From an uncultured Gammaproteobacteria bacterium (lineage in GTDB: Bacteria; Patescibacteriota; Patescibacteriia; UBA11705; JABHMO01), in NCBI GenBank assembly GCA_964590105.1, contig CAZPYM010000001.1, forward strand, positions 1,022 through 65,021: a stretch of 64,000 bases of DNA. Direction: 5' to 3'. The translations under genes were made by a program, and so were the position numbers. Positions within the stretch are counted from its first letter, which is position 1. Each line of letters begins with the position of its first letter. This document shows, piece by piece, positions 12,200-35,554 of this stretch. Below the pieces are notes generated by a model. The model was given only the letters and a program-made list of their open reading frames with translations, was not told the origin of the DNA and ran no database searches.

Positions 12200-12345
12200 G
12201 CAAAATTGCGCTATGACGAAGCGCGGCGCGCGTTAACAAAGGGCGAACGACCCCGCCGTAGGCGGGGGAGAGAGACCGGCCGGCCGCCAGGCCCATTTCT
12301 TCCCCTCCCGCGGGGAGGGGGCAGGGGGGGGGGCTGGGCTACCTG
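12200..12345. other. GC-rich structured island with G10 homopolymer and G-quadruplex-type G-runs
   Basis: Nested GC hairpins (ccccgcc-gta-ggcgggg; cccctccc-gc-gggagggg), a G10 run at 12324-12333, and four or more closely spaced G3+ runs. It sits in an otherwise AT-rich intergenic region upstream of the 12442 gene. Confidence 0.6.
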
Positions 12346-12441
12346 CCTGCAAAGCAAGTAAAGGGCAAAGAGCATGAAACTTTAAGAGTGGAACTTAGAA
12401 ATTTACAAATATAAATATAAAAAAATGAAAAATACGCATTT

Positions 12442-14167: not shown

Positions 14168-14326
14168 TAAAAAATGCCTCTGTAAAAACGCGAAAATTTT
14201 TGACGAGGCGGGTCGACAAGATTTGGTTGTGGGTTAAATGTTGGGTTGAGATAATAAAGTAGTAATTGATGGTGGCGTTTTCGTTATTGTGTCGTCGCGC
14301 CTCACTTCGTTCGGTGCTTCTCGCAA

Positions 14327-14413
14327 TGACAAAGGTGGACGGCACGGCGATGATTGCGACAACGCCACATTGTCATTGCGAGGAGCCGCGCGCAGCAGCG
14401 GCGACGAAGCAAT
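14327..14413. repeat. left inverted-repeat arm of the 'ctcgcaatgaca' element flanking GIY-YIG gene
   Basis: Long hairpin ctcgcaatgacaaaggtgg...ccacattgtcattgcgag. The terminal segment 'gtcattgcgaggagccgcgcgcagcagcggcgacgaagcaatc' is the reverse complement, at about 85% identity, of 14769-14815 on the other side of the GIY-YIG ORF. Confidence 0.7.
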
Positions 14414-14476
14414 CACGCCCCCATTAGCGCTTTCTAAAAGGGTGGCGTCATAATCGCTTCCTGAAAAATATAAGTT

Positions 14477-14776
14477 ATGAGGCGAAGATTATACAGCACA
14501 TATATACTGGCGAATAAAACTAATTCAGTTCTATATACCGGTGTGACTAATAATTTAAATGTAAGAATTTGGCAACATAAAACTAAATTGAACCCAAAAT
14601 CTTTTTGTGCCAGATATAACGTTAATAAATTAGTTTATTATGAAAATTACCAATACGTAATGGATGCGATCAGAAGGGAAAAGCAAATTAAAGCTGGTTC
14701 GAGGAGAAAGAAGGAGCAATTGATTCAGAGAGAGAATCCTAATTATGATGATCTTTATGAAGAATGGCTGGAATGA
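14477..14776 (+). CDS. GIY-YIG nuclease superfamily protein (YhbQ/UPF0213-like)
   Basis: 99 aa. 'YSTYILANKTNSVLYTGVTNNLNVRIWQHK' is the GIY-YIG core and 'DAIRREKQIKAGSRRKKEQLI' is the C-terminal helix typical of YhbQ-type proteins. Confidence 0.8.
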   Translation: MRRRLYSTYILANKTNSVLYTGVTNNLNVRIWQHKTKLNPKSFCARYNVNKLVYYENYQYVMDAIRREKQIKAGSRRKKEQLIQRENPNYDDLYEEWLE

Positions 14777-14788
14777 GATTGCTTCGTC

Positions 14789-14988
14789 GTTCCGCTCCGC
14801 GTGACTCCTCGCAATGACAGAGGGGAGAAGGTGGCTCCGCGTGACTTCTCGCAATGACAGAGGGGATAAGGTGGCTCCGCGTGACTTCTCGCAATGGCAG
14901 AGGGGAGAAGGTGGCTCCGCGTGACTCCTCGCAATGACAGAGGGGAGAAGGTGGCTCTGCGTGACTTCTCGCAATGACAGAGGGAATC
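14789..14988. repeat. tandem array, 5 x 40-bp unit (ggtggctccgcgtgacttctcgcaatgacagaggggagaa)
   Basis: Five head-to-tail copies with 1-3 substitutions each and no spacers. They share the 'ctcgcaatgaca' core with the inverted copies at 14327-14413. The array lies between the GIY-YIG gene and the RAYT-like gene. Confidence 0.9.
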
Positions 14989-15087
14989 GGGTTGCTTTCG
15001 CAGGATTCCTTGCAGTCATTACAGAGGGCGCTTGATGTGCGGTTAATTTAAACTAAACTAGGCGAAATAATTAATTAACCAAAATGT

Positions 15088-15804
15088 ATGAAAAAAGAAA
15101 AACCAATCGCCCCGGCTTTAGAGGGTGAAAAAAAATCCGAAGCAAAACCAAAGTACGACAAGCCGTTTCGCCAGCCAGGCGGAGTGTACTTTCACTACGG
15201 CGAAGTGATCGGGCACAAAAATGTTTTCGTGACAAAAGAATACATGGATTTGCTGGTCAATGCTTTCAAGCTGGCAGAACTGAAGCAGGATATAAAAAAC
15301 CTTGCCTATGTGATCATGCCAAACTTCTTTTTCTGGATGTTTCGTCTGCCGGAAAAAATGGATAATCCCGCTGATATTTATGGCGAAGTCAAGGGCCAAG
15401 TGGCCACGGAAGTGATGAAATATTTACGCAAGGAAATCAAGGAAGGCGCTTTTGATTTGCTCGACATCTTTAAACCAAATGACAGGGTCGGTCGCTCGTT
15501 GCCGCAGAAAATATTATGGAGCTTCGAAGAGCAGGCCAAAGCATTTGAAAATAATAAGCGCTACAAAATTTGGACGCCAAAAACGCGGACCTGCCCGATT
15601 GATAATGATGAAAAATTGCGCGCGAAATTGGCGCAAATCAAAAAAGCGCCGGTGAGCGATCGCTGGAGACTGGTGGAGTCGGCGGAAAAATACCCGTACC
15701 TTTATCTGTCCGAGGAAGTAGCTACGCTTGGCGAGGCCGGAGTTGATCTGGCGTCGTTTTGCCCGGTTATTCAGGTCAATGAATCAGTTGAAGTAAAAAC
15801 CTAG
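15088..15804 (+). CDS. IS200/RAYT-like (COG1943-type) transposase-related protein with degenerate HUH motif
   Basis: 'NLAYVIMPNFFFWMFRLPE' aligns with the family consensus 'AYVLMPNHYHLLLETPE', so both HUH histidines are replaced by Phe. 'RYKIWTPK' sits where the family has 'RYKAVLV', and 'EKYPYLY' near the C-terminus is also family-like. The catalytic-Tyr region is divergent. Family assignment by eye. Confidence 0.45.
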   Translation: MKKEKPIAPALEGEKKSEAKPKYDKPFRQPGGVYFHYGEVIGHKNVFVTKEYMDLLVNAFKLAELKQDIKNLAYVIMPNFFFWMFRLPEKMDNPADIYGEVKGQVATEVMKYLRKEIKEGAFDLLDIFKPNDRVGRSLPQKILWSFEEQAKAFENNKRYKIWTPKTRTCPIDNDEKLRAKLAQIKKAPVSDRWRLVESAEKYPYLYLSEEVATLGEAGVDLASFCPVIQVNESVEVKT

Positions 15805-15918: not shown

Positions 15919-18165
15919 ATGAAATATATAGTTTGTTTAATGTTGATGTTTTTCTTGACAATTCCTTTTGACTTATTATTCCGTCAGGCGTGGGCGCAGG
16001 TTCCCTTGTGTTCAAATACCATAACAGACAGTCTTATTTATCAATACATTGTAATTGGTTGCGGTGAGAACCCGTGTCAAAGTTGGTTGAAGGATTTGTT
16101 GGAAAATATTGAAACAAGTGAAACCCCAAATCAGTCTTCGCAAAGCTTAGCCGGTTCAGGGCAAGCAGATGAAACAAGTGAAACGGATTTAATTTCGCAG
16201 GTGATTTTTGTGGACGGCGAAATCTTTTCACCGGCGGAAACGCTTGAAAAAGCGGAAGATAGTATAGAGGGTGAAAAATCCCTCGACTCCCCCGCACTTG
16301 GCGAAGTCGCTCGGGATGACAATGAGGTGGAACAAGAAGAGGCACAAGGTATTACGGCTAACCTAGTTGAAATTGGGCCAAAACAGATCAGAATCAATGA
16401 AATTGTTGCCGTGCCAATTGCGGGACAAAATGAGTGGGTTGAGCTTTTTAATACTTTGGATTTTGCGGTTGACCTTGACGGTTGGCAGTTGATTGAAGGC
16501 GCAGGAAAAAAAACAGAATTGTCCGGACAGATTCAGCCCGGCGGATATTTGGTTTTTGATAAAAATAATTTGAATAACAGTGGCGACGTTGTTGTTTTGC
16601 AAAATTCCGCTGGCCAGGAAATTGACCGGGTGAGCTATGGTGACTGGGAAGCGGCGACAGCGCCGGCAGCTCCGAGCGGCAATTCAATTGGTTTATTTGG
16701 CAATGAATACAAGGAAACCGAAGTTGTAACGCCGGAGCAGAAGAATGTTTTTCAGTTAGAGGTGGAAGAGGTGGAAGAGGTGGAAGAGGTGGAAGAAGTG
16801 GAAGAAGTTGATCCAGTTGATCAAGTTAACCAAGTTGATCAAGTTAACCAAGTTGATCAAGTTAACCAAGTTGATCAAGTTAATCAAGCGGATCAAGCGG
16901 AGCAAATTGGAACAATAGAAGAAAAAGCCGTTGAATATCAGTATTCAGACAAAATAATAATCAATGAATTTTTGGCGGATCCGCTTGGAAGCGATGACGC
17001 GGAATGGATTGAACTTTACAATAGCGGGGCTGAAGATGTGAATTTATTCGGCTGGAAGTTGGATGACGCAGAGGGCGGCAGTAAAGTGTTTGAAATAAAA
17101 GATCAGATTATTATCAAAGAAAATGATTACCTGATATTTTCGAAAGAAGAAACAGGTTTGGTCCTGAATAATTCATCAGATCGAATCGCTCTCATTGATC
17201 CGGCTGGCAAAATAGTCAGTTCAATTGAATACCAAAATCCGAAAGAAAATTACAGCAGGGCATTGATTGATGACGAATGGCAGGATACATCAATATTAAC
17301 CCCCGGAAAAAAGAATGAAAAACCCGGCTTGCAAATGGCGCAATTTATTGGCAAGGAAAGCGAGGAAAATAGCAAAATCCAAGCAAGTTCTTTATCAGCC
17401 GTCAAAATATATGATTTAAATGAAGTCAGGGATTTGCCCTTGAAAACAAAAGTTATAACCAGGGGGCAAGTGGCCGTACTGCCGAATGTTTTCAGTAAAA
17501 ATTTGATCTATCTGGCCGGTAGCGGCATGCAGATATCTTTTTCCAAAGCAGACTGGCCGGAAATGAACATCGGCGACCTGGTGGAAATTGAAGGCACTCT
17601 TTCGGAAAGTTATGGAGAAAAAAGAATTTTATTGAAAGATAAGCAGGAAATTAAAATTATTGAAGCCGGCGATTTGCCGGCGCCGCATTTAATTGATTCA
17701 AGGCAAATCACAGAAGATGTTGAAGGTTTTTTTGTCCAGATTGAGGGGACTTTGGTAGAAAAAAATGCCAGCAAGATGACTTTTGCTGATGAATATGGGG
17801 AATTCTTTGTTTATCTGAAACAGGGAGCGCAAATTAGTTCAAAAATTCTGAGTTTGAATGATAAAATTCAAATCACGGGAATAGTTAGTCAATATAATGA
17901 TGAATATCGGATTTTGCCGAGAAGCCAGAATGATCTGGTGAATTTTACTTGGTTGGAGAATCCGGTGGCGGGTGAAGTTCAGCAGGGCGAGCAGCAAATT
18001 CCGGCTAGTTCAAGCAGGATTAAAATACTGTGGGGATTACTGACCGGTTTTGTGATCTTGTGTTTTTGCAATTTGTATTTTCTTTGGCAAAAAAAAGCGC
18101 AGGTCGCAGAAAAATTTCAAGCTTTGAGAAAAATAGTTGTCCATAGGTGGAGGCCGGAACCTTAG
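15919..18165 (+). CDS. secreted/membrane-anchored protein with two lamin-tail domains (LTD)
   Basis: Signal peptide. Two LTD motifs ('IRINEIVAVP..NEWVELFN..DLDGWQLIEG..GGYLVFD' and 'IIINEFLADP..AEWIELYN..NLFGWKLDD..NDYLIFS'). An internal EVEEV.../QVDQVN repeat linker. A C-terminal TM helix. The gene ends in TAG. Confidence 0.8.
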   Translation: MKYIVCLMLMFFLTIPFDLLFRQAWAQVPLCSNTITDSLIYQYIVIGCGENPCQSWLKDLLENIETSETPNQSSQSLAGSGQADETSETDLISQVIFVDGEIFSPAETLEKAEDSIEGEKSLDSPALGEVARDDNEVEQEEAQGITANLVEIGPKQIRINEIVAVPIAGQNEWVELFNTLDFAVDLDGWQLIEGAGKKTELSGQIQPGGYLVFDKNNLNNSGDVVVLQNSAGQEIDRVSYGDWEAATAPAAPSGNSIGLFGNEYKETEVVTPEQKNVFQLEVEEVEEVEEVEEVEEVDPVDQVNQVDQVNQVDQVNQVDQVNQADQAEQIGTIEEKAVEYQYSDKIIINEFLADPLGSDDAEWIELYNSGAEDVNLFGWKLDDAEGGSKVFEIKDQIIIKENDYLIFSKEETGLVLNNSSDRIALIDPAGKIVSSIEYQNPKENYSRALIDDEWQDTSILTPGKKNEKPGLQMAQFIGKESEENSKIQASSLSAVKIYDLNEVRDLPLKTKVITRGQVAVLPNVFSKNLIYLAGSGMQISFSKADWPEMNIGDLVEIEGTLSESYGEKRILLKDKQEIKIIEAGDLPAPHLIDSRQITEDVEGFFVQIEGTLVEKNASKMTFADEYGEFFVYLKQGAQISSKILSLNDKIQITGIVSQYNDEYRILPRSQNDLVNFTWLENPVAGEVQQGEQQIPASSSRIKILWGLLTGFVILCFCNLYFLWQKKAQVAEKFQALRKIVVHRWRPEP
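16753..16905 (+). repeat. in-frame coding tandem repeats (9-bp gaggtggaa x5, then 18-bp caagttgatcaagttaac x~4)
   Basis: They encode EVEEVEEVEEVEEVEEV and DQVNQVDQVNQVDQVNQVDQVNQ in the LTD protein linker. All are multiples of 3. Confidence 0.9.
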
Positions 18166-18170
18166 CTGGC

Positions 18171-18235
18171 GGCGGGATTCAGGAATCCCGCCTACAGAAG
18201 ATGGAGTCAGGCGCGCTTCCGGAAGCGCGCCTGAC
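18171..18235. repeat. GC palindromic element copy 2 (ggcgggattc-ag-gaatcccgcc) plus adjacent 30-bp perfect palindrome
   Basis: The first hairpin at 18171-18192 matches 2941-2962. The second hairpin, gtcaggcgcgcttcc|ggaagcgcgcctgac, lies at 18206-18235. Both sit directly after the stop of the LTD gene. Confidence 0.75.
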
Positions 18236-35018: not shown

Positions 35019-35254
<236 letters not shown>

Positions 35255-35275
35255 GCCAGGCATAAAATTATTAGT

Positions 35276-35554
35276 ATGGGTTATTTTGTATATTTTGCGC
35301 GTTGTCAGGATAAGAGTTTGTATATCGGTTGTACTGATGATCCGAATCAACGATTAAAGCGTCATAATAGAGGTGAAGGAAGCGAATGGATTAAACAGCA
35401 TGGTCCGGCAGAAATAGTATATTTTGAAGAATAGGATACTCTTATTGAAGCGAGAAGAAGAGAGCGGCAAGTAAAAAAATGGAGTCGAGTCAAGAAAGAA
35501 AATTTGATTAAGTGGGGGCATCCAATTCCCGAAAAATTGAAGGAGAAAAAATAA
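35276..35554 (+). pseudogene. GIY-YIG (YhbQ-like) nuclease gene interrupted by in-frame TAG at 35435
   Basis: 'MGYFVYFARCQDKSLYIGCTDDPNQRLKRHNRG..GPAEIVYFEE' up to the TAG, then in the same frame 'DTLIEARRRERQVKKWSRVKKENLI...', which is the conserved C-terminal helix of the family. The TAA stop abuts tRNA-Ser(TGA). Confidence 0.6.

Follow-up and report, generated by a model that had tools for sequence, protein, structure and literature searches.

The window analyzed here is a 64-kb stretch of DNA (64,000 nucleotides (nt); contig CAZPYM010000001.1 of GenBank assembly GCA_964590105.1, positions 1,022 to 65,021) from an uncultured patescibacterium. It contains a small gene, related to that of the single-stranded DNA (ssDNA) endonuclease SsnA of Neisseria, set between hairpin repeats in inverted orientation. 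A sequence-only reading of the window had placed this open reading frame (ORF) between near-identical inverted arms lying close to its start and stop codons, with a further long hairpin on the left and a tandem array with a 40-bp unit on the right. Our analysis recovers each of these elements, the arms being displaced by 3-8 nt from the positions first assigned to them. The features of the locus, in window coordinates, are the following.

14285..14331, minus strand: U1, a degenerate full repeat unit that pairs with U2 in the upstream hairpin
14371..14414, plus strand: U2, a full repeat unit forming the left inverted arm (TGTCATTGCGAGG...GACGAAGCAATC)
14477..14776, plus strand: ssn-type gene for a 99-amino-acid single-domain GIY-YIG nuclease, as judged by homology (PF01541, similarity to SsnA)
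14777..14819, minus strand: U3, a full repeat unit forming the right inverted arm (GATTGCTTCGTCG...CCTCGCAATGACA)
14794..14984, minus strand: tandem array with a 40-bp period and 4.8 copies (Tandem Repeats Finder)
14990..15024, minus strand: U4, a strongly decayed unit that closes the array (GGTTGCTTTCG...TTGCAGTCATTACA), with the sixth copy of a direct repeat at 15018-15028

The arms U2 and U3 are 88% complementary over 26 nt and 100% complementary over 13 nt in an inverted-repeat search. U2 ends 62 nt before the ATG of the GIY-YIG ORF, and the first base after its TGA stop codon is the start of U3. Written in the sense of the published Ssn-related repeats (SRMs) discussed below, U2 (plus strand) reads T-GTC-ATTGC-GAGGAGCCGCGCGCAGCAGCGGCGACGAA-GCAAT-C and U3 (minus strand) reads C-TGTC-ATTGC-GAGGAGTCACGCGGAGCGGAACGACGAA-GCAAT-C and continues into the stop codon complement, TCA; each has an interior of 29 nt. 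U1 (minus strand) reads TTTGTC-ATTGC-GAGAAG...GACGACAC-AATAA-C, with a decayed right half. The units of the window are thus built on a 5-bp foot, ATTGC...GCAAT, with an interior of 27-29 nt and a tail of CAC or CTC. The TGTC tag is shared by U1, U2, U3, and all but one of the four extra array copies, the exception having TGCC.

The left-hand hairpin is nested. Its arms (14316-14332 and 14370-14386) are 94% complementary over 17 nt and are enclosed by a weaker outer pair (14282-14298 and 14401-14417). Folding, one of the checks proposed with the sequence-only reading, gave a divided answer: as ssDNA, region 14270-14450 reaches −45.1 kcal/mol (z = −3.5), a stability matched by 0 of 200 shuffled sequences, whereas the array folds no better than its shuffles (z = +0.86). 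The repeat core CTCGCAATGACA, a 12-mer sought with at most one mismatch, occurs seven times in the window against a chance expectation of 0.34, a count reached in 0 of 100 shuffles. All seven occurrences lie within 14320-14979, so the earlier statement that the remaining 63 kb holds no other copy is correct. The guanine-plus-cytosine (GC) content is 32% for the ORF, 58-59% for the repeat blocks, and 41.6% for the window as a whole. At both gathering and E-value thresholds, Rfam held no family that matched the repeat, either here or at 20 related loci.

The encoded protein matches Pfam family PF01541 (GIY-YIG) over residues 6-80 (E = 3.5e-15) and contains no second domain. It is 44% identical over 88 amino acids to the 94-amino-acid SsnA orthologue of Neisseria gonorrhoeae, with E = 2e-22 in the pairwise comparison and E = 4e-13 in a tblastn search against a 7.3-Gb database. 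By the blastp threshold used for Ssn proteins (E < 1e-10, coverage of at least 75%), scored here with the N. gonorrhoeae orthologue in place of the N. meningitidis reference protein, and by the requirement for a single domain and fewer than 150 amino acids, the window protein falls within the family. The SsnA residues Y6, Y17, and E64 have their aligned counterparts in Y9, Y20, and E68 of the window protein, which are invariant across 18 homologues. An AF2 model (pLDDT 94.5) has as its nearest structures the UPF0213 protein BH0048 (PDB 1zg2) and the Slx1 nuclease domain, not UvrC (Foldseek probability 1.0, TM-score ~0.56-0.61); the sequence match to 1zg2 has an E value of 3.5e-4. The nuclease matched nothing in NCBIfam, PHROGs, or PADLOC, and no homologue was found in any phage record.

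Relatives of the window protein at 55-68% identity number in the thousands and are spread over Bacteroidota, Patescibacteria, Clostridia, Spirochaetes, and other groups. An exhaustive search returned 2,411 cluster representatives with E ≤ 1e-10, and the best non-self match among 5.8 billion proteins is 60% identical. Some database homologues carry N- or C-terminal extensions, such as CHCEEERRSNL and SLRAERSNP, that are translated repeat. Elsewhere in the window, between two tRNA-Ser genes, lies a second, distantly related GIY-YIG-like frame (~35276-35530) that is 32% identical to the first and is probably a pseudogene because of an in-frame TAG. Region 35107-35530 also contains, upstream of this frame, another kind of hairpin repeat (~55 nt, CTCGCTACGCTCGCTCGTnGTCTTCGACCAGGCATTGAAAGACGAGTCGAGTG) in two copies, of which the first begins at a tRNA 3′ end; this repeat was sought in all retrieved loci and was found nowhere besides the window.

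The Ssn family was defined by Chenal et al. (Nat Commun 2025; PMC11893778) as site-specific ssDNA endonucleases of ~94 amino acids that consist of a single GIY-YIG domain (CDD cd10448). SsnA of N. meningitidis binds a sequence called NTS (CGTCATTCCCGCGMAVGCGGGAATCYRG, an extended dRS3) as ssDNA only, and on one strand only, and cuts a few nucleotides 5′ of it; the substitutions Y6A, Y17A, and E64A abolish cutting (PMC11893778). Within the NTS, three bases 5′ of the palindrome determine cutting, and the C that follows the palindrome determines binding (PMC11893778). SRMs were found in 71% of homologue regions and on both sides in 42%, biochemical evidence of recognition exists for four Ssn homologues, and in Neisseria, transformation by NTS-bearing DNA is lowered by SsnA (PMC11893778). 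The authors also noted that the NTS-ssnA-NTS arrangement looks like an insertion sequence (IS) and resembles the pairing of repetitive extragenic palindromic (REP) elements with REP-associated tyrosine transposases (RAYTs) (PMC11893778). The view that a GIY-YIG nuclease gene associated with such repeats is not a described arrangement therefore does not hold, the arrangement of ssn gene and repeats having been published in 2025; the window is a further Ssn/SRM case, in a patescibacterium.

The association between gene and repeat recurs well beyond the window. We compared 80 loci of the closest homologues, on contigs chosen as one genome per species, which span Bacteroidota, six Patescibacteria lineages, Gammaproteobacteria, Acidobacteria, Chlorobiota, Ignavibacteria, a cyanobacterium, Dehalococcoidia, Verrucomicrobia, and Balneolaceae. 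Across these genomes, the 8-mer TCGCAATG reaches a density of 5.8/kb within 200 bp of the gene and 0.17/kb at distances above 600 bp. It is present in 114 of 159 gene flanks (72%) as compared with 19 of 196 other non-ORF segments (10%), an odds ratio of 23.6 (Fisher p = 5e-35). GATTGC often abuts the stop codon of the homologue, as it does in the window, and the upstream sides carry single units, pairs, or clusters. At 163 of the ~196 ATTGC...GCAAT sites beside homologous genes, one strand has GTC on the 5′ side and C on the 3′ side, and the base that precedes GTC is C or T in 136 of these 163. The ends of the units are invariant and the interior is free: it is significantly self-complementary in ~30% of cases, with sequences unrelated to one another. 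These results bear out the description of the gene and its flanking inverted, REP-like repeats as one cassette, the arrangement recurring in the 80 genomes, which come from many phyla.

More distant homologues are accompanied by repeats of their own. A tblastn search of plasmid records, some of which are mislabelled chromosomes, returned homologues with 40-53% identity that include those of N. gonorrhoeae, Sinorhizobium meliloti, and Azospirillum lipoferum, each flanked by its own tagged palindrome (CGTCATTCCCGCGCAGGCGGGAATC, CCTCATCCCTGTGCTCGTCACAGGGATCC, and CGTCATCCCCGCGAAGGCGGGGATCCAG). The flanking variants are lineage specific (CGTCATTCCCGCG... in N. gonorrhoeae, CGTCATCCCCGCG... in A. 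lipoferum, CCTCATCCCTGTG... in S. meliloti, and TGTCATTCTGAG... in Planktothrix); Planktothrix, Spirosoma, and Aeromonas have further variants on both sides of the gene, and the Photobacterium homologue has NTS-like units only downstream. In A. lipoferum 4B (L216, NC_016623.1 254018-257284), sufB and sufC enclose the homologue, which has a full pair of inverted repeats to its left and another to its right; the suf operon is standard in other respects. In Planktothrix agardhii (L217, plasmid NZ_LR882964.1, 18256-19713), a homologue with 53% identity lies between an MmeI-type restriction-modification gene and the DISARM gene drmA; its flanking units read TGTCATTCTGAG...AGAATC and are accompanied by arrays of a 23-nt half-unit on both arms.

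The repeat also occurs apart from the gene. The pattern GATTGCTTCGTCG-N8-30-CTCGCAATGAC is found in at least 120 stretches of IMG/VR contigs, and among the matches listed, 48 of 145 units belong to inverted pairs with tags facing outward and a 12-33-nt spacer, as in cgtcattgcgagcgaagcgaagcaatccag...ctgGATTGCTTCG...CTCGCAATGAC. A GIY-YIG homologue is encoded at 0 of the 120 repeat-bearing viral-contig loci among the matches listed, from which it follows that repeats far outnumber genes. We considered whether these loci count against the association and dropped the argument, because they show only the excess of repeats over genes.

We consider it likely, from the protein and repeat sequences, that the window ORF belongs to the Ssn family and that the units on either side of it are the Ssn-related hairpin repeats cognate to its product. 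The two systems share a single-domain GIY-YIG protein of ~95-100 amino acids that keeps the cleavage residues and, in the window, is 44% identical to Neisseria SsnA. They also share hairpin repeats that flank the gene at either end and consist of a GTC tag, an AT-start palindrome, and a C after it, and the association stands at ~70% in both data sets (72% of flanks here; 71% in Chenal et al. with their own motif). By homology, a repeat left single-stranded by DNA uptake, replication, or repair would fold into a hairpin with the ATTGC/GCAAT foot, and the window protein would bind this hairpin on only one of the two strands, reading the GTC 5′ and the C 3′ of the palindrome. Cleavage would fall a few nucleotides 5′ of the tag, and double-stranded DNA (dsDNA) and RNA would not be substrates. 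In the patescibacterium, by analogy with Neisseria, the protein may restrict or shape the recombination of incoming repeat-bearing ssDNA. The locus is probably best filed as an ssn gene with its cognate repeats, and neither as a RAYT/REP system nor as an undescribed cassette.

Several observations weigh against this assignment or set the window apart from the published cases. The published SRM motif, HGTCWYN(0-2)YYVSBRHN(0-5)WNVSBRGN(0-2)RNCYNB, has 0 matches in the window and is present at just 2 of the 80 loci of the closest homologues, whereas the Neisseria and Azospirillum controls do match; the motif misses the window repeat because of the G in its ATTGC foot and because of its long interior. 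The window palindrome thus differs from those of the known systems, with an ATTGC/GCAAT foot of 5 bp and a long variable interior of 27-29 nt in place of an 8-bp stem with a 4-nt loop, and it would appear to be an SRM variant outside the published motif. Identity to SsnA is only 44%, and sequence, not hairpin shape alone, sets the activity of these enzymes, so that cleavage by the window protein is a prediction from homology. Unit orientation is mixed in the 80 loci, with upstream units about equally frequent on either strand. The host differs as well, no Patescibacteria or Bacteroidota being named in the text of the Ssn paper (PMC11893778). Finally, there is a single repeat locus in 64 kb as compared with hundreds of copies in pathogenic Neisseria, so that the genome-wide role of the many Neisseria copies may have no counterpart here.

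A second distinctive feature of the locus is the array that adjoins U3. The tandem arrangement on the right is confirmed, with 94% matches between its copies (14794-14984). In SRM-sense, each extra copy reads CACCTTCTCCCCTC-TGTC-ATTGC-GAGAAGTCACGCGGAGC, that is, a 14-nt flank (CACCTTCTCCCCTC) followed by the tag, the left half of the palindrome, and the loop. Because the right half (GCAATC) is missing, the extra copies are reiterated 5′ half-repeats, and they adjoin the complete unit U3 on its 5′ side, which is where cleavage by Ssn enzymes falls. Copy number differs among assemblies of the same species, with five copies in the window, six in contig L001, and two in L205 and L206, although these are short-read assemblies (k = 141) of a 200-bp array and the counts of 2, 5, and 6 may reflect assembly collapse. 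Runs of two or more tags with no right half between them number 61 in 40 sources, mostly with periods of 20-30 nt, and 50 of these runs end in a tag that does have its right half. Near the gene, 9 of the 80 loci have three or more copies in a regularly spaced array. The word "tandem" is absent from the text of Chenal et al. 2025, and half-repeat arrays are not mentioned there (PMC11893778). We infer that the window array arose as a by-product of repeated cutting and repair, or of slippage, beside U3; half-repeat arrays on the cleavage side offer a testable hint at how such repeats multiply.

The repeat also invites comparison with the CGTC-tagged REPs defined by Di Nocera et al. (BMC Genomics 2013; PMC3733652). 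These elements have a CGTC or TGTC tag, a stem starting with AT, and a CCA tail, pair into dimers, and occur in five phyla; Neisseria dRS3 is listed among them as CGTC-1, and no dedicated transposase had been found for them in 2013 (PMC3733652). The window repeat shares with them a TGTC tag, a stem that starts with A-T pairs, and the formation of pairs; many of its relatives in viral contigs have the CCA tail (cgtcattgcgagcgaagcgaagcaatcca), and dRS3 is the core of the NTS. The differences lie in the stem and loop (8-9 bp and 4-5 nt in CGTC-REPs, as compared with a 5-bp foot and a 27-29-nt interior in the window) and in the tail, which is CAC or CTC in the window instead of CCA. CGTC-REPs are dispersed in high copy number, and a single locus was seen in the 64 kb, which are part of the genome only. 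Because the 2013 study is not cited in the Ssn paper, the equation of SRMs with CGTC-REPs is our own; it links SRMs to a group of repeats that had no dedicated enzyme as of 2013.

Three features of the window may be additions to what Chenal et al. 2025 described: the ATTGC-foot repeat, the patescibacterial host, and the recurrent 5′ half-repeat array. The published motif misses the repeat at 78 of 80 loci, and surveys that use the motif alone would overlook this class. The protein and its repeat form a candidate new enzyme/site pair, T-GTC-ATTGC...GCAAT-C, that would tolerate long variable interiors. Ssn enzymes are in development as site-specific ssDNA cutters, and a new pair could therefore be useful. 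A bolder proposal, which we put forward only tentatively and regard as doubtful, is that the ATTGC-foot repeat and the 55-68% identical nucleases of Bacteroidota, Patescibacteria, and other phyla constitute a separate, very widespread specificity class missed by the SRM motif, and that the half-repeats beside the complete unit are traces of cutting by Ssn and of subsequent faulty repair or copying. If true, the sequences would for the first time offer evidence that Ssn activity itself generates and spreads its repeats, and Ssn would be the long-sought enzyme of the CGTC-tagged REPs.

Among the alternatives, the one that survives best adds to the Ssn explanation and does not exclude it. It holds that the repeat-gene-repeat unit is an active selfish element, an IS-like or homing cassette that spreads copies of itself and of gene-less repeat pairs to new sites, with the Ssn nuclease as its transposase or homing enzyme. 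We judge this unlikely, although a number of features are in its favor. The cassette has terminal inverted repeats with tags facing outward, an architecture that Chenal et al. themselves noted as IS-like (PMC11893778), and repeat pairs that share this orientation but lack a gene, with a spacer of 12-33 nt, make up 48 of 145 units among the matches listed, the repeat being present in at least 120 IMG/VR contigs. The composition of the ORF (32% GC, against 41.6% for the window) is foreign to its surroundings, the nearest relatives (55-68% identity) include many from other phyla, and in A. lipoferum the ssn homologue stands between sufB and sufC with repeat pairs on each side.

A further point is the position itself. 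The cassette lies in a slot within a conserved block of genes that encode TPR and Big_1 proteins before the slot and, after it, a RAYT-like protein, an LTD-domain protein, a TrbL-like protein, and further type-IV-secretion-like proteins. In the window, and likewise in all seven same-species contigs, the slot is occupied by the GIY-YIG cassette; it is empty in the related contig L209, and in L208, L211, and L212 it holds a different small gene, 23S_rRNA_IVP (PF05635), of 123-126 amino acids. Small genes with flanking repeats seem to land in this slot. The 23S_rRNA_IVP gene (5500-5960 in L208 and 5480-5960 in L211; also in L212) lies between AT-rich inverted repeats of its own, such as GTAAAAGTTAAAAGT and ACTTTTACCTTTTAC. 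The search for empty-site alleles that accompanied the sequence-only reading is answered in part: an empty site exists in L209, but it is a distant one, and no close empty allele was found, all seven same-species contigs having the cassette. The relatives with an empty or differently filled slot have neighbouring proteins that are only 54-62% identical, and a metagenome scan for other slot alleles gave no additional contig.

Other observations speak against active copying. No near-identical copy of the cassette exists in another context, the best non-self match of 5.8 billion proteins being 60% identical; the cassette is present once in 64 kb; and no target-site duplication is seen. The three full units at the locus have different interiors and are therefore not recent copies of one another. 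Several Flavobacterium loci have the same sequence directly downstream of the gene, which suggests an orthologous position and vertical descent, the comparison being of this sequence alone. We know of no Ssn for which transposition has been demonstrated.

A second alternative is that the repeats are incidental or regulatory, being terminator or mRNA-stabilizing hairpins or local duplications that built up around a dispensable gene and that the protein does not recognize. REP-type elements are common in 3′ untranslated regions, the arms could pair across the mRNA, array copies differ among assemblies (2, 5, and 6), and the window has no other copy of the repeat. We nevertheless regard this explanation as highly improbable in view of the 24-fold odds ratio over other non-coding segments in many phyla, the conservation of tag and tail bases while the interior varies freely, and the covariation of the palindrome with the protein lineage. 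The repeat also matches no Rfam family, and recognition has direct biochemical evidence in four homologues (PMC11893778).

The gene next to the cassette had been taken for a RAYT/IS200-like gene, and this description stands only in part. The ORF at 15088-15804 (238 amino acids) resembles NCBIfam NF047646 (REP-associated tyrosine transposase) with 56 bits (E = 3.7e-15), below the curated cut-off of 80, and it has neither a Pfam match nor a PDB relative. The HUH motif is not conserved in its family; the window protein has NFFFW, and the first H alone is kept in 3 of 13 members. The family comprises 41 members, from Patescibacteria only, and in L205-L212 its members (NFFFW or NFFYW) are found in a syntenic block with LTD, TrbL-like, PrgI, TraC-like, and VirB4-like genes. 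The protein looks like a domesticated or inactivated relative of Y1 transposases in a type-IV-secretion-like locus.

RAYT genes are flanked on both sides by their REP repeats, whose tag is GTAG. REP/RAYT systems and REPINs, reportedly described by Nunvar in 2010 and by Bertels and Rainey in 2011, follow a logic shared with the window, in which a single gene lies between inverted hairpin repeats that also occur gene-less, often as inverted pairs, and the substrate of the enzyme is an ssDNA hairpin that adjoins a short tag. They differ in fold (HUH/Y1 as compared with GIY-YIG) and in tag (GTAG as compared with GTC), and no transposition is known for Ssn. The proposed link between these repeats and the RAYT-like gene is not borne out: the repeat core is absent near the orthologues in L208-L212 and, within the window, downstream of 15804; no RAYT-like homologue is present at the 80 GIY-YIG loci or on the 120 repeat-bearing viral contigs among the matches listed; and the gene is a fixed member of its syntenic block. 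That the repeats are REP elements of the RAYT-like protein, with the GIY-YIG gene as a passenger, is thus scarcely credible: the sub-threshold NCBIfam match and the start of the ORF 64 nt downstream of the repeat block speak for it, but the score, the missing Pfam and PDB relatives, the unconserved HUH motif, the restriction to a conserved patescibacterial block without the core, the loci and viral contigs without a homologue, the one-sided placement of the repeats, and the GTC tag all speak against it.

Other systems with a related fold are further removed. Slx1 and the bacterial UPF0213 proteins (PDB 1zg2, 4xlg, and 6seh) have the nearest solved folds to the window protein. Slx1 differs in its need for Slx4 and a RING domain and in its substrate, branched dsDNA, which it cleaves with no regard to sequence, and UPF0213 is a separate subfamily. 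GIY-YIG homing endonucleases such as I-TevI and the Seg proteins share the catalytic domain and are likewise encoded by small, selfish-looking genes, but they have a separate DNA-binding domain and cut dsDNA, and the window protein has neither a PHROG match nor a phage homologue. The BrickBuilt MITE (a transposable element of the miniature inverted-repeat type) of Porphyromonas gingivalis and conserved MITEs were also considered and proved to be unrelated.

Three further features lie elsewhere in the window. Just upstream of the Big_1 gene is a GC-rich intergenic island (12204-12377), with 67% GC overall and up to 78% in surroundings of 42%, that contains a run of 10 G and short hairpins (CCCGCCGTAGGCGGG and CCCCTCCCGCGGGGAGGGG). 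A perfect 22-nt palindrome, GGCGGGATTCnGGAATCCCGCC, for which the chance expectation is none, occurs in two copies (2941-2962 and 18171-18192), each followed by TACAnAAGATGG; the second copy begins 6 nt after the stop codon of the LTD gene. The palindrome lacks a GTC tag and may be a terminator-type repeat. The LTD-domain protein itself (15919-18165) contains short in-frame tandem repeats at 16756-16905 (EEVEEV... and VDQVNQ...).

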